Shown here piece by piece: positions 4,823 to 63,978 of a DNA stretch of 64,000 nt. The notes beneath the pieces were generated by a model, which was not told the origin of the DNA, did not search any database, and worked only from the letters and a program-made list of their open reading frames with translations. The stretch's first letter is position 1. Every line of letters starts with the position of its first letter. A program made the translations under genes and the position numbers. This DNA is from Paludibacteraceae bacterium (lineage in GTDB: Bacteria > Bacteroidota > Bacteroidia > Bacteroidales > Paludibacteraceae). The stretch is from the NCBI GenBank assembly GCA_045590995.1, contig JAZNRY010000101.1, positions 5,823 to 69,822 on the forward strand. The letters run 5' to 3'.

Positions 4823-4872
4823 AAGGATTTCTGTTTTGTTGTGTGCCTATGTGGCATAGATGAAAAACGCTG

Positions 4873-4904
4873 CAAAGATACACTTTTTTGTGCAGATATG
4901 CAAG
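4873..4904 (-). promoter_or_regulatory. promoter for 3470..4822
   Basis: Reverse-strand TATCTTTG at 4873-4880 and CTTG at 4901-4904. Confidence 0.55.
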
Positions 4905-4965
4905 GAAATAGCAAGTTTTTGGGTGATTTTTCTTTAAACAGATAAATCAACGGTTTCAGGAAATG

Positions 4966-5024
4966 AGTCAACCTTTTTAGGAAGGGAGACAACTTTTTCG
5001 GGAATAAAGTCAACCTTTTTAGGA
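4966..5024. repeat. three 17-bp direct repeats spaced exactly 21 bp apart
   Basis: AGTCAACCTTTTTAGGA (4966), AGACAACTTTTTCGGGA (4987), AGTCAACCTTTTTAGGA (5008). Confidence 0.75.
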
Positions 5025-5068
5025 CTCAATCTTAAGAAAAGTGCTTTTTTAGTCATATGGTCTTCTTT

Positions 5069-5112
5069 CGGAGTTCTCTCGGAGTTCTCTCGGTTGTCGG
5101 TCGGTGGAATAA
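5069..5112. repeat. 11-bp-period array
   Basis: CGGAGTTCTCT x2, CGGTTGTCGGT, CGGTGGAATAA. Confidence 0.7.
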
Positions 5113-5227
5113 GGCAAAGTATAAGAGAAGGAAAAGAGACGGCAATCTTAACAAAAGTGATAGTGTAGGGCGTAGCGTGTAAGGTGTAAAGGCGGAGATT
5201 GTATCTTCATCCTCCGAGGAAGTATAA

Positions 5228-5304
5228 GGAATAGTGCGCTTATTGTGCGCTTATTGTGCGTCTATTGTCCGTGTATTGTGCGTGAATAGTGCGTAATTGA
5301 CAAA
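5228..5304. repeat. 11-bp-period array (TATTGTGCG type)
   Basis: CTTATTGTGCG x2, TCTATTGTCCG, TGTATTGTGCG, TGAATAGTGCG, TAATTGACAAA. Confidence 0.85.
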
Positions 5305-5345
5305 TATCTTGATGTGTGTGTGCGTTTGCCGCCCCGCTGATGGAA

Positions 5346-6185: not shown

Positions 6186-6195
6186 ATGTAAGATA

Positions 6196-6993
6196 TTAGA
6201 GGTTTTTAACTAAGCGTACGCTCTTTCCTGTTGATCGATTAATGAGCACGCTGTATGTATAAATCTGCCCATCGCAAAAATATAGGAAACAAGGGTCTGG
6301 TCCATCTATGGTTGCTGTCCAATAATAGCCTGCTTTTTGAGTTTCTGCAACTGCCGTTTTCGCTATTCTCATGCCTGCTGCAGGTAGAAAGACAGCTCCG
6401 TTTTGCTCTAACCGCCTCCATTGCTCTGCTGAGAAAGTCTGATGACTATATCCACTACCCATGTATCCTTCATGCATGCCAGAGATAAAGGAAATACTAT
6501 CAGGAGCTACCCAATTGTCGGGTAATAGAATAAGACCATTTACATTATTCACTTGCGCAACACCGATAAGAGTTCTAGCTTTAGGACGATTGAGAATCAG
6601 GTAGTTCCATTCGTCAATGGAAAGAGTGCGCCAAGTATTGGGATTGTCATCGCCAATGCAGTTTACACCCCAATCTACAAAGGTGTCGAAGTCGTTGTAA
6701 TTATTATTAATAAATGTTGGATTGTCTCCTGTTCCCCATCCAAATAGATCGACCCAATCAGCATATTTTTCGCTGATGTTTATGTTCTTTTTGCCTATAT
6801 AGTCATATTGATTAGGCGCAAAACGCCATGCGTATTTAGAAGGTTTGTATTGGAGATTGCCAGGAGAGAAGGCTACCTTCTGTTTAGGAGATACAGAGAA
6901 ATAAGGTGTATTTTTAGGACCGTTGATAGGTTCGCAGCTTGTTGCGATGAATGCTACTATGGCAAGTAGCAATAAACTGATTTTTGTTTTCAT
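6196..6993 (-). CDS. lipoprotein with FISUMP/DUF1566-like domain (paralogue 2, tandem)
   Basis: Lipobox IATSC. Same motif series as 5346..6185: FSPGNLQY, WRFAPNQYDYIG, VDLFGWGTGDNPT, NTWRTLSIDEW, AVFLPAAG, GYYWTAT, SVRLVKNL. Confidence 0.6.
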   Translation of the reverse strand: MKTKISLLLLAIVAFIATSCEPINGPKNTPYFSVSPKQKVAFSPGNLQYKPSKYAWRFAPNQYDYIGKKNINISEKYADWVDLFGWGTGDNPTFINNNYNDFDTFVDWGVNCIGDDNPNTWRTLSIDEWNYLILNRPKARTLIGVAQVNNVNGLILLPDNWVAPDSISFISGMHEGYMGSGYSHQTFSAEQWRRLEQNGAVFLPAAGMRIAKTAVAETQKAGYYWTATIDGPDPCFLYFCDGQIYTYSVLINRSTGKSVRLVKNL

Positions 6994-7027
6994 ATGAGTA
7001 GGTATTTAATTTCGCCTGCAAAGTTAC

Positions 7028-7059
7028 TACTTTTTTTTGATATATGCAAATAAATTTAC
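7028..7059 (-). promoter_or_regulatory. promoter for the lipoprotein pair 6993..5346
   Basis: Reverse-strand TAACTTTG at 7028-7035 and TTTG at 7056-7059. Confidence 0.6.
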
Positions 7060-7128
7060 CCCCCCTATTTTTCTTTGTAACGAACTGATAATAAATATGT
7101 TATATTTTAATGTACGAGAACTATATTA

Positions 7129-7194
7129 GGAATTGTCCGTGTATTGTGCGTCTATTGTCCGTCTATTGTGCGTGAATAGTGCGTAATTGACAAG
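7129..7194. repeat. 11-bp-period array (TATTGTGCG type, second copy)
   Basis: TGTATTGTGCG, TCTATTGTCCG, TCTATTGTGCG, TGAATAGTGCG, TAATTGACAAG. The last ~44 bp nearly match 5261-5304. Confidence 0.85.
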
Positions 7195-7251
7195 AAAAAA
7201 GAAGGTGCGTCTAGTAGACACACCCTCTTGGAATATTTATTCTCTAAAGGA

Positions 7252-9098: not shown

Positions 9099-9173
9099 CA
9101 CCGTGTTTTTCATGGTATTAGATTTAAGGTTAAGTAAAGATTGGGTTGTCGGGATGACAATCCTTCTTTTTTT
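9099..9173 (+). ncRNA. candidate short RNA (promoter to first terminator)
   Basis: A consensus promoter is followed about 50 nt later by a strong hairpin plus T-run. The alternative reading is a 32-aa hydrophobic peptide at 9112-9210. Confidence 0.3.
9143..9173 (+). terminator. intrinsic terminator after the orphan promoter
   Basis: GGGTTGTC-gggat-GACAATCC followed by TTCTTTTTTT. Confidence 0.5.
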
Positions 9174-9285
9174 ATGTATATCCATCCTTTCGGACTTTGG
9201 CCTCGCATAAAATGATCAGGTGTACCTTCGAGGACACCTTACCCTCGAAACTACGGTCGCATTATGAAGCCCATGTGCTACAAAA

Positions 9286-9320
9286 CGGCATAGAAAGCTT
9301 AACTTTCTGCCGTTTTTTTT
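9286..9320 (+). terminator. second intrinsic terminator before the tsaC promoter
   Basis: CGGCA(t)AGAAAG-cttaa-CTTTCTGCCG followed by T8. Confidence 0.55.
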
Positions 9321-9349
9321 GCACATGTGCATTTTTTGTTGTACCTTTG
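9318..9349 (+). promoter_or_regulatory. tsaC promoter
   Basis: TTTG at 9318-9321 and TACCTTTG at 9342-9349. Confidence 0.6.
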
Positions 9350-9357
9350 CAGTCGGT

Positions 9358-9942
9358 ATGGAAATGCGATACGATAAACAGGATTTGCAGAATGCCCTTC
9401 GGGTGTTACGAGCGGGTGGAGTAATACTCTATCCAACGGATACGGTGTGGGGTATAGGATGCGATGCTACCAATGCTTCAGCGGTCGCGCGCGTGTACGA
9501 AATAAAAAGGCGTGTGGATAGCAAGGCTATGTTGGTATTATTGGATGGGGCAGGTAAGTTGCAAGGTTATATGGACAAAGTGCCCGATACCGCGTGGATG
9601 TTGCTGGAGGCAAGCGAAGGGCAGAAACCTATGACGATCATTTATCCTCGTGCGAAGAACTTGGCAGCAAACTTGTTGGCGGATGATGGTAGTGTGGGTA
9701 TTCGTATCACGCAAGAGCCCTTTACGAAGGCACTTTGTGAGCAATTGAGGCGTCCGATAGTTTCGACCTCAGCCAACTACAGTGGAGAGCCAACGGCAAA
9801 GACTTTTGGCGATATTATGCCTGCTTTGTTGGAGGCAGTGGATTATGTATGTGCGTATCGTCGTGACGATAACACAAACCATCAGCCCTCTTCTATCATA
9901 AAGATTGATGAGGCCGAACGAATAACGATTATTAGAAAATAG
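9358..9942 (+). CDS. tsaC: L-threonylcarbamoyladenylate synthase (YrdC/Sua5 family)
   Basis: The ORF-track start at 9319 is TTG and lies inside the promoter. ATG 9358 follows the -7 box at 9342-9349. Motifs GGVILYPTDTVWGIGCDATN and VSTSANYSGEP. Confidence 0.85.
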   Translation: MEMRYDKQDLQNALRVLRAGGVILYPTDTVWGIGCDATNASAVARVYEIKRRVDSKAMLVLLDGAGKLQGYMDKVPDTAWMLLEASEGQKPMTIIYPRAKNLAANLLADDGSVGIRITQEPFTKALCEQLRRPIVSTSANYSGEPTAKTFGDIMPALLEAVDYVCAYRRDDNTNHQPSSIIKIDEAERITIIRK

Positions 9943-9943
9943 A

Positions 9944-11242
9944 ATGAAGCTTCTTTCCAAATACCGTAAACAACAGCTGGCGTATATCTGTGTGGATATA
10001 CTATCTTCGCTATTGGTTTGGTTGGCATTCTTGGGCTTTCGTTGGATGGTGTATGAGGGAAAAGTGATGGGGGTGGATACGCTTTGGATTCCAATGTTTG
10101 ATTTTTATCGCCCATTATTGTTATATCCATTGGGTTGTTTGATGGTATATTACTTAATGGGATATTATTTGCGACCTTTTAACAAAGATTATGCGCAAGA
10201 GTTTCGTGTTACCTTTCTTTCTGCATTGCTGATTGCTTTTGGGGCATTCTTTGTGATAATTATAGATGACCCCGTTAGTAGTTATCATCGGTATCTGACA
10301 TCCTTGTTGGTGTTAATAGGGGTGCATTTTGTGTTGAGTTATTTGCCGCGCTTATGTGTGACTATATTGTCGCGCAATCGTGGTGCTCATTTGCCAACCT
10401 ATTACACTATTCGTTCGTTGAAGCAAATAGATGATTTTAAGCAACATTTTTCGAAAGAGAATGATGTTGATGAAGTGGTGATAGATCTTCCTCAAACAGC
10501 CTCGGAGAAAGATATTTATACGATTATTAATCAATTATATCCCTATGGCGTTGAGATAGCGATTAAGCCTCGCTTGTATGATATGCTTACTGGTGCTGCG
10601 AGTATTAAGGATGTGGAAGATATGCCATTGGTACGCATAACAGAACACAAGATGAGCGATTCGCAGTTGTGTATGAAGCGGGCATTTGATGTGTTGCTTT
10701 CTTCACTGTCTTTGTTGGTGTTGTCACCAGTATATATATTATTGTACATACTGGTTTGGTGCACTTCTAAAGGTCCTGCTATATACAAACAAGAGCGTAT
10801 CGGATTACATGGCATACCTTTTCAGATATTAAAATTCCGCACCATGTATAATGATGCCGAGTCTGATATTCCTATGTTGAGTGCAGATCACGATTCGCGG
10901 ATTACCAAGGTGGGTGCATTCTTGCGTAAGTATCGTTTGGATGAGTTGCCACAAATGTGGAATGTGCTGAAAGGAGATATGTCTATTGTCGGTCCGCGCC
11001 CAGAGCGAAAGTACTTTATAGAACAGATAGAACAACAAGCCCCTTACTATTGTTTATTGTACAAAATACGCCCTGGTTTAACCAGTTGGGGACCTGTAAA
11101 AGTGGGATATACTGATACGATAGAAAAAATGATTCGCCGCCTTAATTACGATGTGGTGTATGTGGAGAATATGTCACTGCAATTGGACTTTAAGATTCTC
11201 TTCCACACGATTGGTGTAATTCTGGATGGCAAAGGGAAATAG
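9944..11242 (+). CDS. polyprenyl-phosphate sugar phosphotransferase (WbaP/EpsB-like bacterial sugar transferase)
   Basis: Four N-terminal TM helices. C-terminal KRAFDVLLSS..ILKFRTM..DELPQMWNVLKGDMSIVGPRPE. Confidence 0.85.
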   Translation: MKLLSKYRKQQLAYICVDILSSLLVWLAFLGFRWMVYEGKVMGVDTLWIPMFDFYRPLLLYPLGCLMVYYLMGYYLRPFNKDYAQEFRVTFLSALLIAFGAFFVIIIDDPVSSYHRYLTSLLVLIGVHFVLSYLPRLCVTILSRNRGAHLPTYYTIRSLKQIDDFKQHFSKENDVDEVVIDLPQTASEKDIYTIINQLYPYGVEIAIKPRLYDMLTGAASIKDVEDMPLVRITEHKMSDSQLCMKRAFDVLLSSLSLLVLSPVYILLYILVWCTSKGPAIYKQERIGLHGIPFQILKFRTMYNDAESDIPMLSADHDSRITKVGAFLRKYRLDELPQMWNVLKGDMSIVGPRPERKYFIEQIEQQAPYYCLLYKIRPGLTSWGPVKVGYTDTIEKMIRRLNYDVVYVENMSLQLDFKILFHTIGVILDGKGK

Positions 11243-11443: not shown

Positions 11444-13252
11444 TTACTCTTCGGAGAAGTGCACGAGCACATGACGATAGGAATTGAATATCTTGGACTT
11501 CGATACGAATCCAAGGTATTTTTTTTGTTCGTCCACTACAGGTAGGTTCCACGCTCCTGTATCCTCAAATACTTCCATGACTTTGCCCATAGGCATGGTG
11601 TTGGTGATGATGGCTTGAGGTGAGTTCATCAGTTGCTTCACGGTGAAGCGATTGTAGAGGCGTGGTTGGAACATGATGTTGCGTACCTCATCCAAGAGCA
11701 GGATACCCAAGAGTTTGCCATTCGTGTCCACTACAGGGAAAATGTTTCGGCGACTTTGAGCAATGACTTTGACTAACTCTCCGAGTGTCATCTCAGGATT
11801 GAGTGTCATGAGGTCTGTTTCGAGTACATTGTCCATCTTAAGCAGTGTAAGCACAGAGCGATCTTTGTTGTGCGTGAGGAGTTCGCCTTTTTGCGCCAAA
11901 CGCATAGCATAGAGGCTATGTGGCTCGAATATCTTGATAGTCAGAAATGAGATAACAGCTACGGCCATTAGTGGCATGAATAAGTGGTAGCCACCCGTGA
12001 GTTCTGCAATGAGGAAGATACCTGTAAGCGGTGCGTGCATGACACCAGCCATCAATCCAGACATACCAGCCAAAGCAAAGTTGGCTTCTGGAACTTCAAT
12101 GCCAATCATATTCATTAGTCTGGCGCAAATGAAGCCCGTGATAGCACCCATGAATAGTGAAGGAGCGAAGATTCCTCCTACACCGCCACCGCCATTGGTA
12201 GCTACTGAAGCAAAAATCTTGAGTAACACAATTGCGGAGAAATAGCCAACCAGAATCCAAGAACCAGTGCCAAAGCGTTCGAAAGGACTATTGGCAATAG
12301 CAGAGATGGAGTCGCCGTTGATGAGCTGCTTGATGACATCATATCCCTCGCCATAGAGTGGGGGAAAGAGGAATAACAGCAAACCCAATGCCGAACCGCC
12401 AACGAGGAACTTTAACCAAATATTCTGTACATATCGTTTGAATAACTGCTCCAAGCGATTCATTCCGCGTGTAAAATAGAGTGATACCAATCCACATACA
12501 ATACCCAATATAACATACCAAGGCAGTCGCTCTACAAAGAAAGGTTCGCTATTTGTGAGCGGGAACATTGCCTCTTGCCCATTGACAAAGAACGATATAG
12601 CTGTTGCTGTCACAGAGGAGATGAGCAGTGGAGCCATACGCGTCATGGTTAGGTCCATCATCAGCACTTCAAGGGTAAAAACAAGACCAGCGATAGGGGC
12701 TTGGAAGATACCTCCGATTGCACCTGCCGCACCGCAACCAATCATGAGCATCATTGTCTTTTGGTCAAGGCGGAATAGTTTTGCCAAATTGCTGCCGATA
12801 GCGGCACCTGTCATAACGATAGGTGCCTCAGCTCCGACTGAACCTCCAAAACCAATGGTAATAGCCGATCCTACCACCGAAGTCCATGTATTATGGAGCT
12901 TGATAATCGATTTGCGCTGAGAGATAGCGTAAAGAATTTTAGTAATACCATGTGATATGTCGTCTTTCACGACATATTTCACGAATAGTCCTGCCAGTGT
13001 GATACCAATCATCGGGGTGATGAGATACCACCAGTGGTCCTGCTCAATGAGGTAGTGCTCCACCAAGTGATGGATGCCGTGTATCATTAGTTTGAGAAGT
13101 TGAGCAGCGCACGAAGCCAATGCTCCCACAAAGAAACTCAGGGTCAAGACGAGGTTTTTTTGCGGGATATGCTGCTCACGCCAAGCGATGAATCGATCGT
13201 ATGTTATTCCTGCGTGTCCCAACCTATGCCACGGTATTTGTCCAGATCCCAC
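11444..13252 (-). CDS. ClC-family chloride channel/antiporter with C-terminal CBS pair
   Basis: [17 protein letters not shown] and [11 protein letters not shown] selectivity motifs, with a CBS pair at the C-terminus. The start is uncertain: GTG 13252 or TTG 13222, and both overlap the obg 3' end. Confidence 0.85.
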
Positions 13253-18694: not shown

Positions 18695-18720
18695 GAATAC
18701 TTTTGACGATCATTTGCCTG

Positions 18721-18752
18721 CAAAATTACTGCTTTTTTTTGATATAGACAAG
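18721..18752 (-). promoter_or_regulatory. priA promoter
   Basis: Reverse-strand TAATTTTG at 18721-18728 and CTTG at 18749-18752. Confidence 0.55.
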
Positions 18753-18837
18753 TATTCAACACATTTTTTTGTGTGATAGTGTGGAAGTGTGGAAGTAGAA
18801 TGGTTGATTGGTGTTGTATTTCTGCCTTGTCAAAATA

Positions 18838-18870
18838 GCCGAGGATAAGCCGAAGATAAGCCGAAGATAG
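18838..18870. repeat. 11-bp-period array
   Basis: GCCGAGGATAA, GCCGAAGATAA, GCCGAAGATAG. Confidence 0.8.
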
Positions 18871-29612: not shown

Positions 29613-30899
29613 ATGATGAACCAATCTAATTTGATTGCAGAGAAGCAAGACCTTCTCATCACCCCTCACTTGACTGAGGGGCAGTTACCAACCCTACTTG
29701 AGCAGGCCCTCTCCGTCGCACCCGTTGGTGAGACACGCGACATGCTGTTGCTCTCCTTATTGACCAACTGTGGCTACGCCGTGCCTGCCATGCGTATGCT
29801 CCACGGTCGCCCTCACCACACCTACAGCCCCGAGCTACTGACCATGATTGTCGCCCCTGCCGCATCGGGCAAAGGTATCATGAACTATGGACGCCTGCTC
29901 CTGCAAGCAATCGAGGGTTGCAACGGCAAACAAGTGTATATCCCTGCCAACTCGTCCGCCTCAGCCCTCATTAAGGTCATGGACGAGTACGACGGACGCG
30001 GTATTGTCTTTGCCACAGAGATGGACACCCTCACCCAGACACTCCGTGCCGCCTACGGTAAGTTTGGTGACCTTGTTCGCTGTATCTTTGAACACGAGAC
30101 CGTTAGCCAACTCCGCCGCCAAAACAACGAGTTCATCGAGATTCGCAATCCGCGTATTGCTATGCTCCTGTCGGGTACGCCCAACCAAGTAGCACCATTG
30201 CTCCGCAACCGTGAGAATGGACTGATGTCCCGCTTTGGCTGCTATGTGGTCAATAGCCGCATGGACTTTGATGACCATGTGTGGGACATAGAGGAAGAGG
30301 GCAATATGCCGAGCGAAGCCGTACTCTATGACCGCCTTGCGACGGAACTCGGCGACCGTTACCTGTGGATGGAGACGGCAGGGCATGCGTGTTACTTCTA
30401 CCTCACGGATGCACAGCTCAAGACCATCAAGCGTATGTTCCGCAGTGAATACGACACCTATAGCGCAGAGTTTGGCGACTTGTTCGATGCCTCGCTCAAG
30501 CGTATGCCTGTGATTATGAAGCGCATTGGTATGATTCTGACGGGCTTGCGTTTGGATATGACCAAGCCATTGCCTGAGCGCGTGGTTTGCTCGGAGGAAG
30601 ATTTTCAGACCATGCTCTTGATTGGTCACAAACTGCTGATGCACGCCGCGATGGTCTTCCAAATGATGCCTGAGTTGAAAGCTACGCCTGTAGGTGAGAT
30701 AGGGGGCAATATGTTGCAAAAGCAGTTCTTCCAAATGCTTCCCACGGACTTTACGAAACAGGAGGCGGTGAAGCAAGCCGAAGTCCTTGGAGTGGCATTG
30801 AGCACAATGGAAAGATGGATAACAAAATCCGTACAAACTGCTCACATAGAAAGACTTGCAACAGGTTTGTACAGAAAGAAACCCTCATGTATTGCGTAG
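29613..30899 (+). CDS. DUF3987/VirE-like P-loop protein (mobile-element or phage-satellite type)
   Basis: LLTMIVAPAASGKG Walker-A-like motif, then IVFATEMDTL (Walker-B-like). The overall layout matches what I recall of Bacteroidota DUF3987 proteins. Sampled 60-nt stretches are 52-60% GC, against 37-45% in sampled neighbours. Confidence 0.55.
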   Translation: MMNQSNLIAEKQDLLITPHLTEGQLPTLLEQALSVAPVGETRDMLLLSLLTNCGYAVPAMRMLHGRPHHTYSPELLTMIVAPAASGKGIMNYGRLLLQAIEGCNGKQVYIPANSSASALIKVMDEYDGRGIVFATEMDTLTQTLRAAYGKFGDLVRCIFEHETVSQLRRQNNEFIEIRNPRIAMLLSGTPNQVAPLLRNRENGLMSRFGCYVVNSRMDFDDHVWDIEEEGNMPSEAVLYDRLATELGDRYLWMETAGHACYFYLTDAQLKTIKRMFRSEYDTYSAEFGDLFDASLKRMPVIMKRIGMILTGLRLDMTKPLPERVVCSEEDFQTMLLIGHKLLMHAAMVFQMMPELKATPVGEIGGNMLQKQFFQMLPTDFTKQEAVKQAEVLGVALSTMERWITKSVQTAHIERLATGLYRKKPSCIA

Positions 30900-30965
30900 T
30901 GAGGGGAATGAGGGAGTGAGGGAAATACACCCCTCACTTCCCTCACTCCCTCACTTCCCTCATTC
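30899..30965 (+). terminator. long imperfect hairpin made of inverted 8-mer arrays, after the DUF3987-like gene
   Basis: GTGAGGGGAATGAGGGAGTGAGGGAA-atacac-CCCTCACTTCCCTCACTCCCTCACTTCCCTCATTC. Confidence 0.45.
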
Positions 30966-31042: not shown

Positions 31043-31075
31043 GAACCCGTCAAGAACCCGTCATGAACCCGTAAT
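31043..31075. repeat. 11-bp-period array
   Basis: GAACCCGTCAA, GAACCCGTCAT, GAACCCGTAAT. Confidence 0.8.
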
Positions 31076-31097: not shown

Positions 31098-31389
31098 CTA
31101 CCAAAATTATAAACAATTATAGTATATTAACCAAAATTATTTGGGAACTATATACATGTTGACACTTTATATCTCCTTGCCCTGCGGGCAGAAATCTAAA
31201 TAAATCTTTTTGCCACGCTATAGCCACGCTTTTACGAGGTACTCCGTAATATATTACCACCGTCTCCTCACATCGCCTTGAGCGATGCTCGTGCGACTAA
31301 ATCTTAAGTAAATGTGGCATGAATAACACGAAGTGTCAACTGATATATAAGTCCCAATTATTTTATTAACAACTTAAACAACATAAACG
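31098..31389 (+). ncRNA. conserved noncoding leader block, copy A (candidate structured RNA or cis element)
   Basis: 31160-31268 matches the reverse complement of 60217-60325 with about 6 mismatches in 109 nt. 31276-31356 matches 60036-60116 at roughly 85%. No ORF of 60 aa or more on either strand. Confidence 0.4.
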
Positions 31390-33889: not shown

Positions 33890-33958
33890 AATATTATTTG
33901 TTTAATGTTTAGTGTTTAACGATTTAACGAGTTAATGTTTAAAGTGTAAAGGCGAGGG

Positions 33959-57194: not shown

Positions 57195-57809
57195 TTATAG
57201 AATAGGGTATGCGGCATCTTCATCTCCGTCCACTGCGGGAGGATTGAAGTTGCGTTGTTTGGGCATACCTGATAGGCTGTTTGTCCACCATACCCACATG
57301 CCGAAGAGCATCAAGTAAAATAGGTACTTGAATATATAGCTGTGCATCAACTCAAACAATTCGGGGTGGTACTCTATAATCAATGTAATCAGTGCGATAC
57401 GCAGGACATTGAATAGGTATATAGCCACAAATCCCAATGGTATAAACCACAATTTGCGTAGCCATTTTCCGCGTGCTACGAGCATGATTATCAGCCAGAT
57501 GAACGCTTGTTTCAAGGCGGTGCAACTCCATACAATGCGCACGCTGGAACCGCTGTCGAAACGCAGGATATTGTTGGGCAACTGGTGAAGGGTGTCGCGC
57601 ACGAGGTGTACCGCCCAATAAACAGCATTAGCGATATGCGCAGCCAAAAAGTCAAACGGTGCGGTGATGTCTATTCCGAACCATGTCACTTGTTCGCCAC
57701 CTTCATCACCCATTACGGTAAACTTCCAGAAGAAGTTCGCCACTAACAACGCCACTACGAACAATAGTATGTTCACATACGGAGTAATATGTTTTTTCCA
57801 ATTTTTCAT
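57195..57809 (-). CDS. exosortase/archaeosortase family protein (XrtF-like size)
   Basis: 204 aa, polytopic. Candidate catalytic Cys in IVWSCTALKQ, Arg in FNVLRIAL, and His in ELMHSYIF. Confidence 0.55.
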   Translation of the reverse strand: MKNWKKHITPYVNILLFVVALLVANFFWKFTVMGDEGGEQVTWFGIDITAPFDFLAAHIANAVYWAVHLVRDTLHQLPNNILRFDSGSSVRIVWSCTALKQAFIWLIIMLVARGKWLRKLWFIPLGFVAIYLFNVLRIALITLIIEYHPELFELMHSYIFKYLFYLMLFGMWVWWTNSLSGMPKQRNFNPPAVDGDEDAAYPIL

Positions 57810-57973
57810 TCGCCAATTTATATATTTCGTTGTTTTTGTTTATTATTTCTTTCCGTGGCACAATGTTGGTGCCACGGATTAGTTGTCTCTGTTGTCGTCA
57901 ATCCAATTCCCTTGTCGCTCGCAGGATTATTGTTTGCGAGCGGACATTGTCGCCATTGTCGTCCTTCCGTCCC

Positions 57974-59002
57974 TTAAATCCTTGTCTTCGCATACGGTGC
58001 CGCATCCACGGGACAGAACTCTCTCTTCAGGTACTTATAGTACCCTGCTTGCGCCACCATCGCGGCATTGTCCGTCGTGTAGGCAAACGGTGGGATATGC
58101 ACTTTCCAGTGATGGCGTTTGCCCAAGTCAAGGAGTGCATCGCGCAGTCCGCTGTTGGCGCTCACGCCGCCTGCCACGGCAATCTCTTTTATCCCCATAT
58201 CCTTGGCTGCTTGCTTCAGCTTATTGATAAGAATATCAATGATGGTCTTCTGCAACGAAGCGCACAAATCCGCTTTGTGTTCCTCGATGAAATCGGGATT
58301 TTCTTTCAGTTGGTCGCGCAGGAAATAGAGGAACGAGGTCTTCAGTCCCGAGAACGAGTAGTTGTATTCGGGTATATGGGGTTTGCTGAATTGGAACGCC
58401 TCGGCATTGCCTTCTTTGGCAAGTCGGTCTATCCATGGTCCGCCGGGGTAGGGCAGTCCCATGATCTTCGCGCACTTGTCGAACGCTTCGCCTGCGGCGT
58501 CATCAATCGTCTGTCCGATGATCTCCATGGTGTAGTGGTCTTTTACCAGCACAATCTGACTATTTCCCCCACTCACCAACAAACACAGAAAAGGGAAGCC
58601 TGGCTCCCGGTTCCCGGTATCCGTGCCTTTCGCCTCGATGAAATGGGCTAAAATATGCGCTTGCAGGTGGTTCACTTCCACCAGTGGTATGTCTTGTGCG
58701 AGTGCCAATCCTTTGGCGAAACTGGTGCCTACCAGCAGGCTACCCAACAACCCAGGTCCTCGTGTGAAGGCAATCGCGCTCAGTTGGTCTGCCGTCACGC
58801 CTGCGCGTTTGAGGGCGGCATCTACTACGGGTACGATGTTCAGTTGGTGCGCACGGCTGGCGAGTTCGGGTACTACGCCGCCGAACTCCTCGTGTACGCC
58901 TTGCGAAGCGGTCACATTGCTCAATAGCAGCCCATCACGAATGACTGCTGCCGAGGTGTCGTCGCAACTCGATTCTATCGCTAAAATAATGGTCTCTTTC
59001 AT
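57974..59002 (-). CDS. tsaD: tRNA N6-adenosine threonylcarbamoyltransferase
   Basis: ILAIESSCDDTSAAV, GVVPELASRAH, LLVSGG, GGVSAN. Confidence 0.95.
   Translation of the reverse strand: MKETIILAIESSCDDTSAAVIRDGLLLSNVTASQGVHEEFGGVVPELASRAHQLNIVPVVDAALKRAGVTADQLSAIAFTRGPGLLGSLLVGTSFAKGLALAQDIPLVEVNHLQAHILAHFIEAKGTDTGNREPGFPFLCLLVSGGNSQIVLVKDHYTMEIIGQTIDDAAGEAFDKCAKIMGLPYPGGPWIDRLAKEGNAEAFQFSKPHIPEYNYSFSGLKTSFLYFLRDQLKENPDFIEEHKADLCASLQKTIIDILINKLKQAAKDMGIKEIAVAGGVSANSGLRDALLDLGKRHHWKVHIPPFAYTTDNAAMVAQAGYYKYLKREFCPVDAAPYAKTRI
58604..58624 (-). repeat. three tandem 7-mers (21 nt, in frame) inside tsaD
   Basis: CTCCCGG TTCCCGG TATCCGT. Encodes part of GTDTGNREPG, just before the conserved FPFL..VSGG. 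Confidence 0.45.
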
Positions 59003-59089
59003 ATCAATCCCATTTATGTATTGGCTATATTGTTATTGTTGGTTCTAATATTGTTGTTGATTGTTAATAGTCTTATTTTTCTCCCATGA

Positions 59090-59114
59090 GCGCGCAATGT
59101 GTTGTTTTGCGCGC
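59090..59114. repeat. GC-hairpin repeat, copy f (upstream of tsaD)
   Basis: GCGCGCAA-tgtgttgtt-TTGCGCGC, flanked by GTTGTT-rich tracts. Confidence 0.7.
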
Positions 59115-59154
59115 AATGTATTGTTGACTTATGTTGTTGTCTTAAATATCCCCT

Positions 59155-59496
59155 TTATTTCTTCGGATACAGCAATCGGAACACGAAGGTGCGCAACGAA
59201 GCGCATGGTTGTTTCTTTCGTTTGCGTGATTCGGTTATGTGTTTGCGGAAAAGCTGTTCGTATTCAGCGCGTTGTGTAGGGTCAGCCAACTGCGAGTCCA
59301 CCTCTTTCCATGTGTCACGAAAGCGTGCTTGCGCTTGTTGTTGTGCCTCGGTGGGGGTGTCCACGCGATTGGGGTACTCCATGCCTATGCCGTATAATTG
59401 TCCTGTGTGTTTGTTTGCACGGATATAAATGCGCTCATTACGGATGAACTTGCCCGTTATTGAGGCAAATGGGGAAGATGGTGTAATTTTTGACAT
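59155..59496 (-). CDS. small basic protein, paralogue family member P3
   Basis: Start moved to MSKITPSSPFASITGKF (ATG 59496). This aligns with P2 MAKILLDAPIAAVAGSI, and the ATG at 59523 abuts a GC hairpin. 113 aa. Confidence 0.55.
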   Translation of the reverse strand: MSKITPSSPFASITGKFIRNERIYIRANKHTGQLYGIGMEYPNRVDTPTEAQQQAQARFRDTWKEVDSQLADPTQRAEYEQLFRKHITESRKRKKQPCASLRTFVFRLLYPKK

Positions 59497-59525
59497 AAGA
59501 TGATTATTACTAATATTTCCCATGA

Positions 59526-59550
59526 GCGCGCAATGTGTTGTTTTGCGCGC
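59526..59550. repeat. GC-hairpin repeat, copy g (between P2 and P3)
   Basis: GCGCGCAA-tgtgttgtt-TTGCGCGC, then AAGTTGTTTAAGTTGTT. Confidence 0.7.
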
Positions 59551-59604
59551 AAATGTTGTTGGATTAAGTTGTTTAAGTTGTTGATTAAAATAATTCTTTT
59601 TGTT

Positions 59605-59997
59605 TTATTCCTGCTCTTTCGCTTGGGTGTGTAGGGTGTGGAATATATACCCGTATAGTGTCCTAATGACGGACTTTCGGCGCGATGAATAGGGCAAATA
59701 GTCGTTTGATGAAGCGGAGCGTTTGTACGATGGATTATGTTTCTTCGTGTATGCAGCAAACTCTTTTTCCCATTTTGTGCGTTTTGCTGGGTCTGCCATT
59801 TCGGCGTGTACTTGTTTAGAAATCTCGCCGAACAGTGATGAGTTGCGTTTTTGTGTTTCCGATGGGGGTTGCTCATTGGGGTGCATGACTATATAGGCAT
59901 GGGTACGACCATTGCGCATACGATAAACCACTTGTTGGTGTTTGGATATCGAACCAGCCACCGCTGCTATAGGAGCATCAAGAAGAATTTTTGCCAT
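59605..59997 (-). CDS. small basic protein, paralogue family member P2
   Basis: 130 aa. MAKILLDAPIAAVAGSISKHQQVVYRMRNG...PSETQKRNSSLFGEISKQVHAEMADPAKRTKWEKEF...VIRTLYGYIF. Preceded by a ~420-nt conserved leader. Confidence 0.6.
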   Translation of the reverse strand: MAKILLDAPIAAVAGSISKHQQVVYRMRNGRTHAYIVMHPNEQPPSETQKRNSSLFGEISKQVHAEMADPAKRTKWEKEFAAYTKKHNPSYKRSASSNDYLPYSSRRKSVIRTLYGYIFHTLHTQAKEQE

Positions 59998-59999
59998 AA

Positions 60000-60416
60000 T
60001 TGTTTATATTGTTGTTTATAGTTTGCTTTTAGTTTTGGGATTTATATACTTGTTGACCCTTTGTGTTATTCCCGCCACATTTACTGAAGATTTAGTCGTA
60101 CGATCATCGCTCAAGGTCTATCGGGGTCCCCGAAAATTTTTAATTTTTGGGGAGAGGAGAAATGGCGGCAAGCCAAACTCGCACGCGAGTTTCATCTTGC
60201 AAGCCCATTTCGACGAAGGAGACGGTGGTAATATATTACGGAGTACCTCGTAAAAGCGCGGCTTAAGTGTGGCAAAAAGATTTATTTAGATTTCTGCCCG
60301 CAGGGCAAGGAGATATTCAGTGTCACCATGCCTAATAATTCGCTTCATTCGCCGTTCCAAATAAATAATTTTGGTTAATCTTCTATAATTTTGGTAGCGC
60401 AAATCACTTTCGCCTG
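60000..60416 (-). ncRNA. conserved noncoding leader block, copy B, with a 100-nt structured insert
   Basis: Begins right after the consensus promoter at 60417-60448. Homologous to copy A, except that 60117-60216 replaces 7 nt of copy A. Confidence 0.4.
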
Positions 60417-60448
60417 CAAAGGTACTAAAATTCACGGACATCACCAAA
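60417..60448 (-). promoter_or_regulatory. promoter of conserved leader B and the P2-P3 genes
   Basis: Reverse-strand TACCTTTG at 60417-60424 and TTTG at 60445-60448. Confidence 0.55.
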
Positions 60449-60499
60449 TTTTTTGCCGAAAAAATACAATTTTTGTTACTTTTTTGCATCGTGTCTGTT

Positions 60500-60609
60500 C
60501 CGATAGATAACCGATACATAACCGATACATTACCGACACATAACCGATACATATGAATACCCCGTGAATACTCCCCGAATACTCTGCGAATATCCCATGA
60601 ATACCCCTA
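60500..60609. repeat. 11-bp-period array, ten units of two sequence types
   Basis: CCGATAGATAA, CCGATACATAA, CCGATACATTA, CCGACACATAA, CCGATACATAT, then GAATACCCCGT, GAATACTCCCC, GAATACTCTGC, GAATATCCCAT, GAATACCCCTA. Confidence 0.85.
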
Positions 60610-60909
60610 TCTTTAGATCCCTATGGGAGCAGCCTACCCTGCAAATACCCTCAAGCCACCTACATCCCCTTTCACCTTTCAGTTTTCAGTTTATATGTAC
60701 ATCGTCTCCAACCAAGTGCCTATGATGATTGATGTGCGTCAAAACATAGACACAGTGCCTATGTCCATGCTGATACATCCAGACTACCGAACCGAGAAAG
60801 CAGAGTTATTTCTACTTCTATCCAGAGTTGGTTCTCTGCCGCCAGCCACTGGATGCCAGCCACCAGCCGCCAAATGCTGGTTCCCAGCCGCCGGATGCCA
60901 GCTGCCCCT

Positions 60910-60943
60910 AAAAAAAGCCACCTTGTCTTTTCAACAAAGTGGC
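60910..60943 (-). terminator. intrinsic terminator downstream of tnaA and the tandem repeats
   Basis: Minus strand: AGCCACTTTG-N8-CAAGGTGGCT followed by T7. Confidence 0.55.
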
Positions 60944-60957
60944 TTCTTTATCCCTTG

Positions 60958-60983
60958 CCGCGGCAGGGAGTTGATTGCCGCGG
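60958..60983. repeat. GC-hairpin repeat, copy d
   Basis: CCGCGGCA-gggagttgat-TGCCGCGG. The reverse complement has the same loop as copy c. Confidence 0.7.
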
Positions 60984-61237
60984 AATGTTGTCTATGTTGT
61001 CTTCTTAACCAACGGCACTCCTTGTCTCCGTGTCCATCCGTGCCATCCGTGGGATGTTATATCTCCTTGCCGCAGATCATTGTTGGCGAATCGGAAGAGT
61101 TGTCTATGTTGTCTTCTTAACCACCCGATTCCTTGTCTCCGTGTCCATCCGTGTCATCCGTGGGCGGTTATATCTCCTTGCCGCAGATCATTGTTGGCGA
61201 ATCGGGAATGTTGTCTATGTCGTCTTCCAAAAACTTA
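60983..61237. repeat. tandem repeat, ~111-112 bp unit, about 2.2 copies
   Basis: TTGTCTATG starts at 60988, 61100 and 61211. Each unit contains CCATCCGTG subrepeats and ATATCTCCTTGCCGCAGATC. Confidence 0.85.
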
Positions 61238-61241
61238 CACC

Positions 61242-62621
61242 TTACTTTCCCAAACGCTTCAATTCAACGGTGAAATGGCGCATTAGCGGTGCTTCTTTCG
61301 TAATCGCCAAACCGCGAGTGATACTCTCACGGCGGTCATAGACATTCTTCAGAGCAGCAGCAATCACCTTCATATGGTTGTCGGTATAAACGCGGCGAGG
61401 GATACACAATCGCACCAAGTCCAGTCCGCCAAAGCGGTTCTCTCTTGTTACAGGATCTCTATCCGCCAAGATATAACCTATCTCACACGCACGAATACCT
61501 GCCTCCAAGTACAATTCGCAGGTCAATGTCTGCGCAGGGAACTCCTCAATAGGCACATGGGTCAGCACCTTATCCGCATCCACGAAGATAGCGTGACCAC
61601 CTGCAGGGCGTTGGTAAGGAATGCCGTATTCATCGAGCAACTCAGCCAAATACTCCACCTGATGAATACGCGTTTGCAACATGTCAAACTGCGTGTTTTC
61701 CTCCAATCCAACGGCCAAAGCAGCCATATCGCGACCGTTCATACCGCCATAGGTGATAAAGCCCTCGTATGGGATACAATAGCGTTTGCAACCTTCGTAC
61801 CAATCCTCGCGATTAGTAGCGATGAATCCGCCCATATTCACGATTCCGTCCTTCTTAGCGGACATGGTCATGCTATCGGCATAGGAGAACATCTCTTTGG
61901 CAATCTCCTGAATACTCTTGTCTGCATAACCTTCCTCGCGGGTCTTGATGAAATACGCATTCTCCGCAAAGCGCGCAGAGTCCATATTCACAGGTACGCC
62001 ATACTTATGGCACAGCTCGCATGTCTCGCGGATATTCTTCATCGAAACGGGCTGTCCGCCTACAGTATTATTCGTTACGGTCAGCACCATAAATGGCACA
62101 TTGCCTGGGTTGTCTTTCAGCAATTGCTCCAGATGCTCTAAGTCCACATTACCCTTGAAAGGAATCTCCAATTGGGTGTTCTTCGCCTCTTTGATAGTTA
62201 CATCAAAAGCGTGTGCCTTGCGTGCCTCAATATGCCCTTTTGTCGTATCGAAATGCGCATTACCAGGGATGACATGTCCCTCTTTCACAAGGTGAGAGAA
62301 GAGTACATTCTCCGCCGCACGACCTTGGTGCGTTGGGATAACATACTGAAAACCGGTGATACGAGTGATTGTGTCCTTCAGTTCGAAGAACGACTTACTA
62401 CCCGAATAACTCTCATCGCCGAGCATCAATGCAGCCCATTGGCGGTCGGACATAGCGCCTGTACCCGAGTCGGTCAAAAGGTCAATGTAAACTTGCTCGC
62501 TGCGGAGCATAAAGATGTTGTTCTTAGCTTCTTTCAGCCATTGTTCGCGCTCTGCGCGGGTGGATTTGCGGATGGGTTCTACCATCTTAATCTTCCACGA
62601 TTCAGCAAAAGGTAATTCCAT
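61242..62621 (-). CDS. tnaA: tryptophanase (beta-eliminating lyase)
   Basis: 459 aa. IDLLTDSGTGAMS, DSARFAENAYFIK, the MSAKKDG PLP-Lys motif, GGHAIFVDA. Closer to TnaA than to tyrosine phenol-lyase as I remember the two sequences. Confidence 0.85.
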   Translation of the reverse strand: MELPFAESWKIKMVEPIRKSTRAEREQWLKEAKNNIFMLRSEQVYIDLLTDSGTGAMSDRQWAALMLGDESYSGSKSFFELKDTITRITGFQYVIPTHQGRAAENVLFSHLVKEGHVIPGNAHFDTTKGHIEARKAHAFDVTIKEAKNTQLEIPFKGNVDLEHLEQLLKDNPGNVPFMVLTVTNNTVGGQPVSMKNIRETCELCHKYGVPVNMDSARFAENAYFIKTREEGYADKSIQEIAKEMFSYADSMTMSAKKDGIVNMGGFIATNREDWYEGCKRYCIPYEGFITYGGMNGRDMAALAVGLEENTQFDMLQTRIHQVEYLAELLDEYGIPYQRPAGGHAIFVDADKVLTHVPIEEFPAQTLTCELYLEAGIRACEIGYILADRDPVTRENRFGGLDLVRLCIPRRVYTDNHMKVIAAALKNVYDRRESITRGLAITKEAPLMRHFTVELKRLGK

Positions 62622-62656
62622 GGTATTTGTATTGATTAAAAAGTTTTAAGGGTGTG

Positions 62657-62688
62657 CAAAAGTACTACTTTTTTTTGAAATATGCAAA
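62657..62688 (-). promoter_or_regulatory. tnaA promoter
   Basis: Reverse-strand TACTTTTG at 62657-62664 and TTTG at 62685-62688. Confidence 0.6.
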
Positions 62689-62702
62689 AAAATAAATGAA
62701 TA

Positions 62703-62734
62703 TTTGTGTATATCCTTTTTTTTTTGTACTTTTG
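62703..62734 (+). promoter_or_regulatory. waaA promoter
   Basis: TTTG at 62703-62706 and TACTTTTG at 62727-62734. Confidence 0.6.
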
Positions 62735-62778
62735 CGCGGTATTTTGTATATTCCCCTTGTTATGGGGGTAAAGAAACT

Positions 62779-63978
62779 ATGTTTATATATTTTTGGATAC
62801 TACGATTGGCTGCCCTTTTCGGGCATAGCAAAGCGAAGAAAATAGTCAGAGGGCAACGCGAGGCAATCACTGCGCTGCAAGAATGGCGTGCGGCTGTTAC
62901 TGCACCCGTATTGTGGATTCATGTGGCGTCCGTTGGAGAGTTTGAGCAGGTGCGTCCTATCATTGAGCGCTTGCGCGAGAACCGTACCGCGCGCAAAATC
63001 GTGCTGACTTTCTTCTCCTCCTCGGGCTATGAGATGCGCAAGGATTACGACAAGGTGGACAAAGTCCTCTACCTGCCTTTCGCTACAAAGCGCAATGCCA
63101 AAAAATGGCTACACGCATTGCAACCAGAGATGGCGGTATTCGTCAAATATGAATTTTGGCCTGCTTACCTGCTGCGCCTGAAAAAACAGAATATCCCCAC
63201 TTATCTCATTTCCGCCATCTTCCGTCCTAAGCAATTGTTCTTCCGACCTTGGGGTACTCTCTATCGTCGATTGCTGCATTGTTTCACGCATATCTATGTG
63301 CAAGACCAGGCTTCTGCACAATTGTTATTGCGCTATGGCATAGAACCTGTGACGGTGGCTGGTGATACGCGCTTTGACCGCGTGACCGAAGTGCGTTCGG
63401 CAGCCAAAGAACTGCCTGTCGTGCAAATGTTCGCAGGAGAAAAGACGCGCGTATTGGTGGCAGGTAGCACATGGCCAGAGGAAGAGCAGATGCTCGCACG
63501 CTTTGTAGCGGAACGCGAAGATATACGCTTGATATTGGTGCCGCACGAATTGCATGAGAACCATTTGCGACAAATCTTCCAGTATTTCGAGGGACGCTAT
63601 GTGCGCTACAGCGAGGCTTCTCCCATGAGTGTGTCTATGGCGCGCGTACTGCTGGTGGATACGATGGGATTGTTGTCCTCTATCTACCGCTATGGTGCGG
63701 TAGCATACATAGGCGGTGGCTTTGGCGTGGGGATTCACAACACGCTGGAGGCGGCGGTATATGGCATGCCCGTCGTGTTTGGACCAAACTGGAAGAAGTT
63801 CCGCGAAGCGCAAGGACTGCAAGAGGCAGGAGCGGCAATCAGCGTGAAGAACTACCGCGAATTCGCGGAGGCATTAGACAGAGCGTTTGCCGAACAAGAG
63901 CAGATGGGACAAGCCGCAGCCGACTATGTCCAAAGCGAGTGCGGCGCCACCGAGAAGATTTATCGGGAAATCTTCTAA
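62779..63978 (+). CDS. waaA: 3-deoxy-D-manno-octulosonic acid (Kdo) transferase
   Basis: Trimmed to MFIYFWIL (ATG 62779, after promoter 62703-62734). VLWIHVASVGEFEQVRPII. Confidence 0.85.
   Translation: MFIYFWILRLAALFGHSKAKKIVRGQREAITALQEWRAAVTAPVLWIHVASVGEFEQVRPIIERLRENRTARKIVLTFFSSSGYEMRKDYDKVDKVLYLPFATKRNAKKWLHALQPEMAVFVKYEFWPAYLLRLKKQNIPTYLISAIFRPKQLFFRPWGTLYRRLLHCFTHIYVQDQASAQLLLRYGIEPVTVAGDTRFDRVTEVRSAAKELPVVQMFAGEKTRVLVAGSTWPEEEQMLARFVAEREDIRLILVPHELHENHLRQIFQYFEGRYVRYSEASPMSVSMARVLLVDTMGLLSSIYRYGAVAYIGGGFGVGIHNTLEAAVYGMPVVFGPNWKKFREAQGLQEAGAAISVKNYREFAEALDRAFAEQEQMGQAAADYVQSECGATEKIYREIF

Follow-up and report, generated by a model that had tools for sequence, protein, structure and literature searches.

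Intergenic tandem arrays with an exact 11-bp unit in a Paludibacteraceae genome and its relatives

A 64,000-nucleotide stretch of the genome of a Paludibacteraceae bacterium (contig JAZNRY010000101.1), referred to below as the window, was analysed with respect to a tandemly repeated tract at positions 60500-60609. This focus tract occupies 110 bp of a 1-kb non-coding spacer, and its neighbours are tnaA, kdtA, tsaD, an exosortase-family gene and small proteins without a known family. The initial annotation had described ten consecutive 11-mers here, which was confirmed by direct reading and with Tandem Repeats Finder (TRF). The units stand head-to-tail in two blocks of five. The units of the first block are ccgatagataa, ccgatacataa, ccgatacatta, ccgacacataa and ccgatacatat, and those of the second are gaataccccgt, gaatactcccc, gaatactctgc, gaatatcccat and gaataccccta. 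TRF placed the first block at 60500-60553 (period 11, 4.9 copies, 88% matches, score 87, 0 indels) and the second at 60554-60607 (period 11, 4.9 copies, 74% matches, score 52, 0 indels). The two-unit pattern of each block gave four in-register matches, against 0.00 expected from dinucleotide shuffles for the first block and 0.07 for the second. The GAATA core of the second block is invariant, and positions 6-11 of its unit are variable. The focus units had no other occurrence within the window and no inverted partner, and the predicted RNA or hairpin fold of the array was not better than that of shuffles (z = 0.84 for the second block). A hairpin or RNA structure was ruled out on these grounds; the focus array is of the plain direct-repeat type.

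Leader A, a conserved element, has a promoter that reads towards it, and the tract covers the interval from 51 to 160 bp upstream of the -33 box of this promoter. The gaps between the two blocks and this box, located by the strict motif TTTG-N17-23-TAnnTTTG, are 51 and 105 bp. The rest of the spacer (60610-61241) is a repeat mosaic too. It contains TTTCAGT in 2.3 copies (60677-60692), 14/21-bp repeats of the GCCAGCCACCAGCC type (60838-60902) and a 111-bp unit in 2.2 copies (60987-61227), which holds 9-mers and a leader-like TATATCTCCTTGCC motif. A 165-aa open reading frame (ORF) at 60623-61120 is probably spurious. The Rfam search gave no family over the arrays or the leader, and the sole match there was Ref55, which was below the threshold.

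The 11-bp period is not confined to the focus tract. Five further arrays of this period had been listed in the window, and all of them were recovered by TRF and in the sequence itself. The earlier description of six unrelated arrays holds as far as the shared period and the unrelated units are concerned, but the arrays at 5228-5304 and 7129-7194 duplicate each other, with a 52-bp common stretch (7142-7193) at 98% identity that includes the tail GAATAGTGCGTAATTGACAA. Our own scan of the window, which required at least 3 copies at 85% identity or more, detected six arrays at period 11 versus 0, 1, 1 and 0 at periods 9, 10, 12 and 13, and no arrays above period 12.

To extend the comparison, a lineage sample of 93 metagenome stretches (644 kb) was assembled, each containing a 20-mer from the leader. 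The sample is anchored on this one repeated element, has no taxonomic labels and consists of metagenome contigs, not complete genomes. At a score of at least 44 and at least 2.8 copies, TRF found 107, 13, 16, 3, 44, 4 and 0 arrays at periods 7, 8, 9, 10, 11, 12 and 13, respectively, and 5 arrays at period 22. A Markov shuffle of the same sample gave 0 arrays. With our own scan, 32 arrays were found at period 11 versus 1, 0 and 0 at periods 10, 12 and 13. Merging of adjacent arrays and orthologous contigs left 26 independent 11-mer loci. About 38 different unit sequences occur in the sample, without a common motif, and the density of 11-mer arrays in the lineage is roughly 50-100 per Mb.

The control sample comprised 79 pckA loci of other species (1.37 Mb), divided by record title, and contained a single 11-mer array overall. 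Its Bacteroidales-labelled loci (400 kb) held one 11-mer array and six 22-mer arrays; the remaining loci, mostly of Firmicutes (975 kb), held neither 11-mer nor 22-mer arrays. Near relatives were also reached independently of the leader (about 86 kb of non-redundant sequence), by way of PckA, TnaA and the response regulator, and each had its own unrelated 11-mer array, for example AGTTAGTGATT in 7.1 copies in L184 and AATCCTACGTC in 4.9 copies in L185. The 22-bp arrays of other Bacteroidales were seen in three Bacteroidaceae metagenome genomes, with two arrays per 21-kb locus (L033, L048 and L063), and also in L107, L121, L129 and L157. Some 22-mer units have dyad-symmetric cores, for example TTTTAC-N3-GTAAAA, which gives them the look of operator arrays.

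These data show that tandem repeats are not equally frequent at all periods, which was the check attached to the first description of the arrays. The spike at period 11 is real, sharp and restricted to Bacteroidales. In the Paludibacteraceae lineage, the unit lengths of intergenic arrays concentrate on 11 bp, and in other Bacteroidales such arrays are rarer and mostly of 22 bp. The proposal that the arrays share a period without sharing a sequence is thus borne out as a lineage property, far above chance, and common descent does not explain it.

The position of the arrays was determined after masking them before ORF calling; both the gene calls and the promoter motif are crude. All of the 11-mer arrays (50/50) are intergenic; non-coding DNA makes up 18.5% of the sequence. 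In the window, arrays such as 7129-7194, 18837-18870 and the focus tract stand behind the end of a gene and ahead of the promoter of the following gene. Convergent spacers are avoided by 11-mer arrays (4/39) and favoured by 7-mer arrays (30/88; Fisher p = 0.005). A promoter motif reading away from the array within 150 bp was found at 7 of the 26 independent 11-mer loci versus 0 of 18-82 7-mer loci, the p value being 0.03 at its most conservative, that is, with a deliberately over-merged 7-mer set. We dropped the raw count of 11/50 versus 0/106 in favour of these de-duplicated numbers, because it was inflated by orthologous contigs and adjacent arms that were counted separately. Where the motif was found, the nearest edge of the array lies 31-105 bp upstream of the -33 box. 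The initial annotation had placed most arrays upstream of consensus promoters. The preference for promoter-bearing spacers stands, but it is weaker after de-duplication, and the promoter association of the 11-mer arrays is a tendency, not a rule. The consensus promoter ascribed to the second leader copy of the window, leader B, was not found: there is no TAnnTTTG between leader B and its array, and leader A alone has one. The arrays lie neither inside an ORF nor between core promoter elements, the positions expected of a phase-variable switch made of simple sequence repeats (SSRs).

The second and larger class in the lineage sample has 7-bp units, with its 107 arrays in 644 kb reaching up to 35 copies, and 106 of them are non-coding. 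They often begin within about 25 nt of a stop codon, a promoter motif was never found next to them in this sample, and arrays of different heptamers are often strung together. A function as an all-frame stop was rejected for both classes, as stop triplets are not enriched (21 vs. 18.7 for 7-mers and 7 vs. 6.0 for 11-mers). It is possible, though doubtful, that Bacteroidales carry two functionally distinct, length-defined classes of arrays, one of 11/22 bp in promoter-bearing spacers and one of 7 bp behind stop codons, in which length and not sequence is selected or generated.

Differences in unit number between strains, which had been suggested as a check, were observed at two loci. At the spacer between the response-regulator gene and priA, compared in seven strains, L002 has four units and the six others have three; the only other differences lie in a nearby T-run. 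At the second locus, one arm of L102 has at least 14.7 units versus about 5 in L094, L111 and L125. Altogether, of seven orthologous groups with flanks 94.8-100% identical (96-100% except for one pair), two changed in length by whole units and five showed no length change. Variants are grouped in runs along the array (A A B B), the pattern that duplication of units would produce. Judged from these comparisons, the arrays appear to be variable-number tandem repeats (VNTRs) that change at a moderate pace and do not behave as hypermutable switches.

A comparison at a slightly greater distance revealed replacement of whole spacers. The PckA of the window is 100% identical to that of L009, a Paludibacteraceae genome from a roe deer colon metagenome, and the genes shared by the two genomes are 95-97% identical at the DNA level. 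Between such genomes, spacers are replaced wholesale. L009 lacks the lipoprotein pair of the window and both of its arrays (window 4931-7251 versus L009:11606-11861) and has in their place 255 bp containing heptamers of the sequence CTTTACA, along with a pckA terminator unlike that of the window. The lipoprotein genes themselves are paralogous (5346-6185 and 6196-6993) and belong to no family. For the focus spacer, loci with TnaA homologues at 91-96% identity were compared, and their synteny is unlike that of the window. In L182 and L184 (TnaA 95-96% identical), the order is tsaD-exosortase-tnaA with kdtA divergent from tsaD, and in the window (57195-63978) tnaA and a cassette of leader A and the small proteins sit between tsaD and kdtA. 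With such a difference in order around tnaA, no counterpart of the focus spacer exists in the relatives compared. Exact-protein look-ups with tnaA, pckA, tsaD, the exosortase-family gene and both small proteins gave no match.

Pairs of arrays with the same unit, 2-7 kb apart, were observed to bracket operons (Table 1); the members of a pair resemble each other only over the array and a short tail. It could be asked whether the arrays originate from mobile elements, as target-site footprints, as parts of miniature inverted-repeat transposable elements or as cassette boundaries. The dispersal of arrays and short tails as copies a few kb apart, the absence of the lipoprotein pair and its flanking arrays from L009, and the inverted pairs formed by some arrays are all in line with such an origin. 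We nevertheless regard it as scarcely credible: the bracketed segments hold core genes (rplM-rpsB-tsf-sod in L162) and a redox operon, the similarity ends 10-20 bp beyond the array, arrays of 14.7 units are too long for single footprints, and no transposase or integrase was found beside the arrays. A role as boundaries of mobile cassettes was ruled out by the bracketing of core ribosomal-protein genes.

Direct repeats that recur once per helical turn could also form a cooperative platform for a sequence-specific protein, such as a ParR-like ribbon-helix-helix (RHH) protein or a winged-helix regulator. The architecture resembles that of the R1 parC/ParR repeats and of the omega heptads (PMC9426499, PMC9499535), the second focus block keeps its GAATA core while its other positions vary, array pairs with the same unit bracket operons, and some 22-mer units have dyad-symmetric cores. 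Still, we consider phased binding sites improbable. The many units share no motif, arrays are not kept at orthologous spacers of near relatives, and the two focus blocks have unlike sequences and adjoin each other instead of flanking the promoter. No par, RHH or rep genes were found near the focus array, where the flanking small proteins have no family. Per-column conservation was tried as a sign of binding sites and rejected: mismatches cluster significantly by column in just 2/13 arrays, and the variants come in blocks.

The helical setting of the arrays was analysed in two ways. In the non-repeat intergenic DNA of these contigs, the AA/TT autocorrelation has maxima near 11, 21, 33 and 42 bp; the phasing fits best at a period of 10.5-10.75 bp, and its amplitude is about 8%. 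Eleven is therefore the whole number nearest to the local helical signal and is better phased than 10. On a helix of 10.5-10.75 bp, the drift per copy is about 10 degrees for an 11-bp unit versus about 24 degrees for a 10-bp unit, which is a reason to prefer 11 and 22 over 10. Multiples were also seen, namely the 22-mers and a 21-mer that stands beside 11-mers within one spacer.

Curvature was calculated with the Bolshoy-Trifonov wedge model and the parameters of its published table; the values are approximate. Over 56 bp, random units bend 37.5 degrees at period 11 and 35.4 degrees at period 10. Four of the six arrays of the window, with both focus blocks scored separately and included, lie at the 85th-94th percentile of the window for curvature. 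The arrays are moderately curved simply because they are periodic. Selection of the arrays as intrinsically bent DNA upstream of promoters would agree with this percentile and with the bend of about 37 degrees over 56 bp predicted for any 11-periodic sequence, and yet it seems very improbable to us. Shuffling the units increases their bend (median 43.4 degrees, versus 32.7 for the observed units), the units contain no A-tracts, and two of the arrays (5063 and 18837) are predicted to be nearly straight. Moreover, period 10 would curve equally in the model and is almost absent. Optimisation for curvature was rejected for these reasons, and intrinsic curvature, offered in the initial annotation as a possible constraint, does not explain the avoidance of 10.

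The focus tract is most likely a pair of adjoining VNTR arrays of the slippage type, situated upstream of a promoter in a spacer rich in repeats. The arrays have the characteristics of VNTRs, that is, head-to-tail units above chance, whole-unit differences between strains and a non-coding position. Our tentative reading of the class as a whole, which we place somewhat short of an even chance, is that the arrays are VNTRs of the slippage type and that, in spacers with a promoter, a filter restricts their unit length to whole turns of the helix. Arrays would originate locally from resident sequence, which would explain why their units are unrelated. Replication slippage would add and remove whole units, and over short evolutionary distances arrays would be replaced wholesale. 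The unit length would be set by a helical-phase filter: in promoter-bearing spacers, whole-turn insertions alone would keep the rotational setting of the upstream DNA relative to the promoter, and they would also give a coherent, repeated face of the helix. Duplications of whole turns would then persist and expand, and other lengths would be lost. Any effect on expression would be architectural and modulatory, without a sequence-specific factor. Slippage, helical-phase filtering and any influence on transcription are all inferred.

Several observations weigh against this reading. Random placement of the arrays within their own spacers gives 6.9 expected near promoters, so that the 11 observed are a modest excess, and a fixed register to the -33 box was not found (gaps of 31-105 bp). 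In 12/49 cases the 11-mer array begins no more than 60 nt from a stop codon, and in 14/50 an inverted copy of its own unit lies no more than 120 bp away; in some of the latter, 11-mer units build long hairpins that stand about 40 nt downstream of a stop codon. Not all 11-mer arrays are therefore promoter-related. A helical repeat of 10.5 bp would tolerate period 10, which is nearly absent, and the explanation needs an effective repeat of about 10.7 bp or more. Helical phase cannot account for the 7-bp class, whose existence limits any purely helical-turn explanation. Finally, two-copy duplications already peak at 11, which is not what a selection filter acting on expansion alone predicts.

The numbers behind the last point are as follows. 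Isolated exact two-copy duplications in the lineage sample amounted to 17 at period 11 versus 4, 3 and 0 at periods 10, 12 and 13, and the controls had no peak at 11 (3, 3, 1 and 1). This is the strongest point for a mutational bias, by which the replication or repair of Bacteroidales would preferentially make or expand tandem duplications of 11 bp (and 7 bp). Its cause may be a ruler set by the polymerase or primer-template footprint, or Okazaki-primer processing, and the arrays may then be neutral by-products that are tolerated only in non-coding DNA. We take such a bias as a serious candidate, though one on the unlikely side. It fits units that are free of motifs and not optimised for bending, arrays that are replaced between 95-97% identical genomes and differ among near relatives, the coexistence of a second sharp class at 7 bp, and block-wise variants, which are consistent with slippage. 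However, a position-blind process does not predict that 7-mers and 11-mers occupy different types of spacers, other Bacteroidales are dominated by 22-mers instead of 11-mers, and the two-copy "seeds" may be contracted arrays and not new events. To our knowledge, no known bacterial process yields an exact 11-bp ruler. The phase filter is favoured over a mutational ruler because the niches of the 7-bp and 11-bp arrays differ and because the multiples 22 and 21 occur, but the two-copy peak at 11 keeps the mutational explanation close.

The features discussed here are collected in Table 1.

Table 1. Positions of arrays, promoters, leaders and related features in the window and in the compared loci
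Feature	Coordinates	Strand	Description
Focus block 1	60500..60554	.	5 x CCGATACATAA, 11-bp unit; direct reading and TRF
Focus block 2	60555..60609	.	5 x GAATAC(Y)CCNN, 11-bp unit; direct reading and TRF
11-mer array CGGAGTTCTCT	5063..5112	.	About 2.8 good copies and degenerate units; spacer upstream of AlbA_2-family gene
11-mer array TATTGTGCG-NN	5228..5304	.	About 6 units and tail GAATAGTGCGTAATTGACAA; TRF, repeat family D2
Second TATTGTGCG-NN array	7129..7194	.	TRF, repeat family D2
11-mer array GCCGARGATAA x 3	18837..18870	.	Between response-regulator gene and priA promoter; TRF
11-mer array GAACCCGTCAW x 3	31043..31075	.	About 80 bp upstream of leader B
21-bp x 3.7 array (two helical turns)	4947..5024	.	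TRF, repeat family D8
AlbA_2 promoter-like element	4865-4906
pckA intrinsic-terminator-like hairpin	7199..7229	-	14-pair stem, then TTTTCTTGTC
priA Bacteroidetes-type promoter-like element	18713..18754	-	Repeat family D1, 86% identical to reference copy
Lipoprotein-pair Bacteroidetes-type promoter-like element	7011..7052	-	Reference copy of family D1; strict promoter motif
Leader A Bacteroidetes-type promoter (-33 TTTG ... -7 TAccTTTG)	60409..60450	-	Families D1 and D11
Leader A	60217..60330	-	Inverted repeat I1, 94% complementary to leader B
Leader B	31155-31268	+
Bracketing pair, lipoprotein pair	window 5231-5304 and 7132-7194
Bracketing pair, redox-enzyme operon	L147:5677-5755 and 12807-12881
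Bracketing pair, rplM-rpsB-tsf-sod	L162:393-433 and 4993-5030
7-mer array examples	among lineage loci L089-L181: L177:5181-5424, L155:6071-6316, L162:537-643
Weaker 7-mer examples in the window	33899-33942, 60677-60692

The window contains many promoter elements of the TAnnTTTG type. Upstream of the AlbA_2-family gene, the CGGAGTTCTCT array has 95% matches over 5063-5093 (TRF) and continues as degenerate copies to 5112. Two 11-mer arrays and the 21-bp array share this spacer; the 21-bp array comes closest to the AlbA_2 promoter, with about 45 bp between it and the -33 region downstream. The first TATTGTGCG-NN array stands just past the 3' end of the lipoprotein pair. The pckA terminator, with its T tail, is directly followed by the second copy of this array, and 81 bp separate that copy from the -33 box of the lipoprotein-pair promoter, upstream of which it lies. 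The array between the response-regulator gene and priA is preceded by a hairpin and a T-run after the former gene and is about 85 bp from the priA promoter element. The array upstream of leader B has 94% matches over 31043-31072 (TRF).

Other repeats were noted as well. The sequence TTGACAA / TTGTCAA abuts three 11-mer arrays of the window (5297, 7187 and 18827; two independent cases) and occurs 13 times in the 64 kb; as an array-adjoining motif it was discarded, being found at 0/44 arrays in the independent lineage sample. Inside the AlbA_2-family gene (3645-3715) there is an in-frame 12-bp (24-bp) repeat in 5.5 copies versus 3.5 in L009 (13082-13123), which looks like a coding VNTR. A palindrome of 8/9-mer units, (AGTGAGGG)n followed by (CCCTCACTT)n, lies after the DUF3987 gene (30898-30962). 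A small RNA of the FopS family (Rfam RF04319, 77 bits) was detected at 9103-9176 on the plus strand, upstream of the genes at 9319-11242. Among the lineage contigs, arrays that continue into their own reverse complement, and so form long hairpins a short way behind a stop codon, were found at L094:4384-4484, L125:6065-6165, L102:9131-9337 and L170:5761-5860, and nested palindromes built from two different 11-mer arrays at L147 (5677-5755 and 12778-12881).

Each leader copy of the window precedes small basic paralogous proteins (113-130 aa), of which there are two in the case of leader A, and these proteins gave no Pfam or NCBIfam family. The idea that leaders A and B belong to capsule loci was ruled out, since the small proteins downstream have no family and are followed by tsaD. 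The leader 20-mer TTGCCCTGCGGGCAGAAATC has 103 occurrences in the fetched contigs, with L096, L099, L115, L120 and L127 among the loci. It is part of a palindromic intergenic element of about 170 nt in most contigs and is sometimes tandem, as in L127 with four copies about 85 bp apart.

The preference for an 11-base unit may show how the geometry of upstream DNA constrains or tunes expression. If length and not sequence matters, the arrays are a natural experiment on upstream geometry at Bacteroidales promoters, which have a distinctive -33/-7 architecture and poorly known upstream determinants. The exact preference for 11/22 bp, with 10 and 12 nearly absent, would then provide an in vivo estimate of the effective helical repeat. 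If the preference is mutational, the arrays point to an unrecognised replication or repair ruler in a major gut phylum. Two length-defined classes, if true, would imply either a dedicated readout that ignores sequence (upstream geometry, or a nucleoid protein binding at each helical turn) or dedicated machinery that generates the arrays by an 11-bp ruler, and the arrays would supply fast-evolving, strain-specific tuning of many promoters. The arrays would be usable as strain-typing markers and are likely break points in metagenome assemblies.

A search of the literature on Bacteroides, Bacteroidales and Prevotella, incomplete in its coverage, found no 11-bp repeat class, and the sharp, sequence-independent 11/22-bp class and its niche separation from the 7-bp class appear to be undescribed. 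Published surveys report 4-11-mers as normally or weakly over-represented, without an 11-bp spike in Bacteroidetes (PMC4692102, PMC4060949). Intergenic SSRs with long units are known, for instance the heptamers of Xanthomonas and Nostoc and TAACTGA of Beggiatoaceae (PMC4692102, PMC4679880), and were surveyed by Mrazek (2007) and by Huang and Mrazek (2014; PMC4060949). As quoted in PMC4692102, Mrazek (2007) tentatively ascribed the bacterial heptamer excess to the footprint of the polymerase active site. The arrays described here resemble these SSRs in their short head-to-tail units, non-coding bias, lineage-specific abundance and variation between close relatives, and the 7-bp class fits the known heptamer excess. 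In those cases either a single motif dominates the genome, such as GGGAATC or TAACTGA, or the heptamer class is concerned, whereas here many unrelated units have an exact length of 11/22 bp.

Among promoter-upstream VNTRs, the 8-bp ACAGATAC repeat of the E. coli pks island tunes expression from its position upstream of clbR (PMC10924459). It shares with the arrays a chromosomal, intergenic and promoter-upstream location and a unit number that varies between strains. The 7-bp repeats upstream of the H. influenzae hmw genes are a further example. In contrast to the single clbR locus, for which the effect on expression was shown, the arrays form a genome-wide class of fixed length, and their unit number is mostly stable among strains with 96-100% identical flanks.

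Direct repeats of 10-11 bp are also found in known binding sites. The operators of winged-helix regulators such as PhoB, OmpR and ArcA consist of two to five direct repeats, 10-11 bp centre-to-centre, upstream of a promoter. The repeat spacing and promoter-upstream architecture of the arrays fit this pattern. Unlike the half-sites of these regulators, which recur over a regulon and are conserved orthologously, the units of the arrays are unrelated across loci and replaced in near relatives. According to Dam and Gerdes (1994), as cited in PMC9426499, parC of plasmid R1 has ten 11-bp direct repeats bound by the RHH protein ParR. The focus tract likewise has ten direct 11-bp repeats, five plus five, beside a promoter. 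However, parC uses one repeat sequence in sets that flank the promoter, with parM and parR following, and the focus blocks differ in sequence, are contiguous, lie on one side and are chromosomal. The omega (ParB) protein of pSM19035 binds runs of 7-10 adjoining 7-bp heptads, which may be direct or inverted (PMC9499535). Similar unspaced 7-bp units, direct and inverted, occur in the 7-mer class and in the forms with an array and its inverted counterpart. The omega heptads follow one consensus (WATCACW), overlap promoters and belong to a plasmid with the cognate protein, whereas the 7-mers described here have many sequences, reach 35 copies, follow stop codons and avoid promoters. A partition site of the ParR/parC or omega type was ruled out, as no par genes are present. 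Plasmid replication iterons (oriV) were dismissed as well, since there is no rep gene and the flanks are chromosomal housekeeping genes, and so was a clustered regularly interspaced short palindromic repeats (CRISPR) array, since the units are contiguous and without spacers.

Lastly, a genome-wide 10-11-bp periodicity of AA/TT is known in bacterial DNA (PMC3372288, PMC4060949). It has the same length scale as the arrays and is present in the non-repeat intergenic DNA of these contigs. Unlike this weak statistical phasing of A/T, the arrays are exact tandem copies of arbitrary 11-mers.

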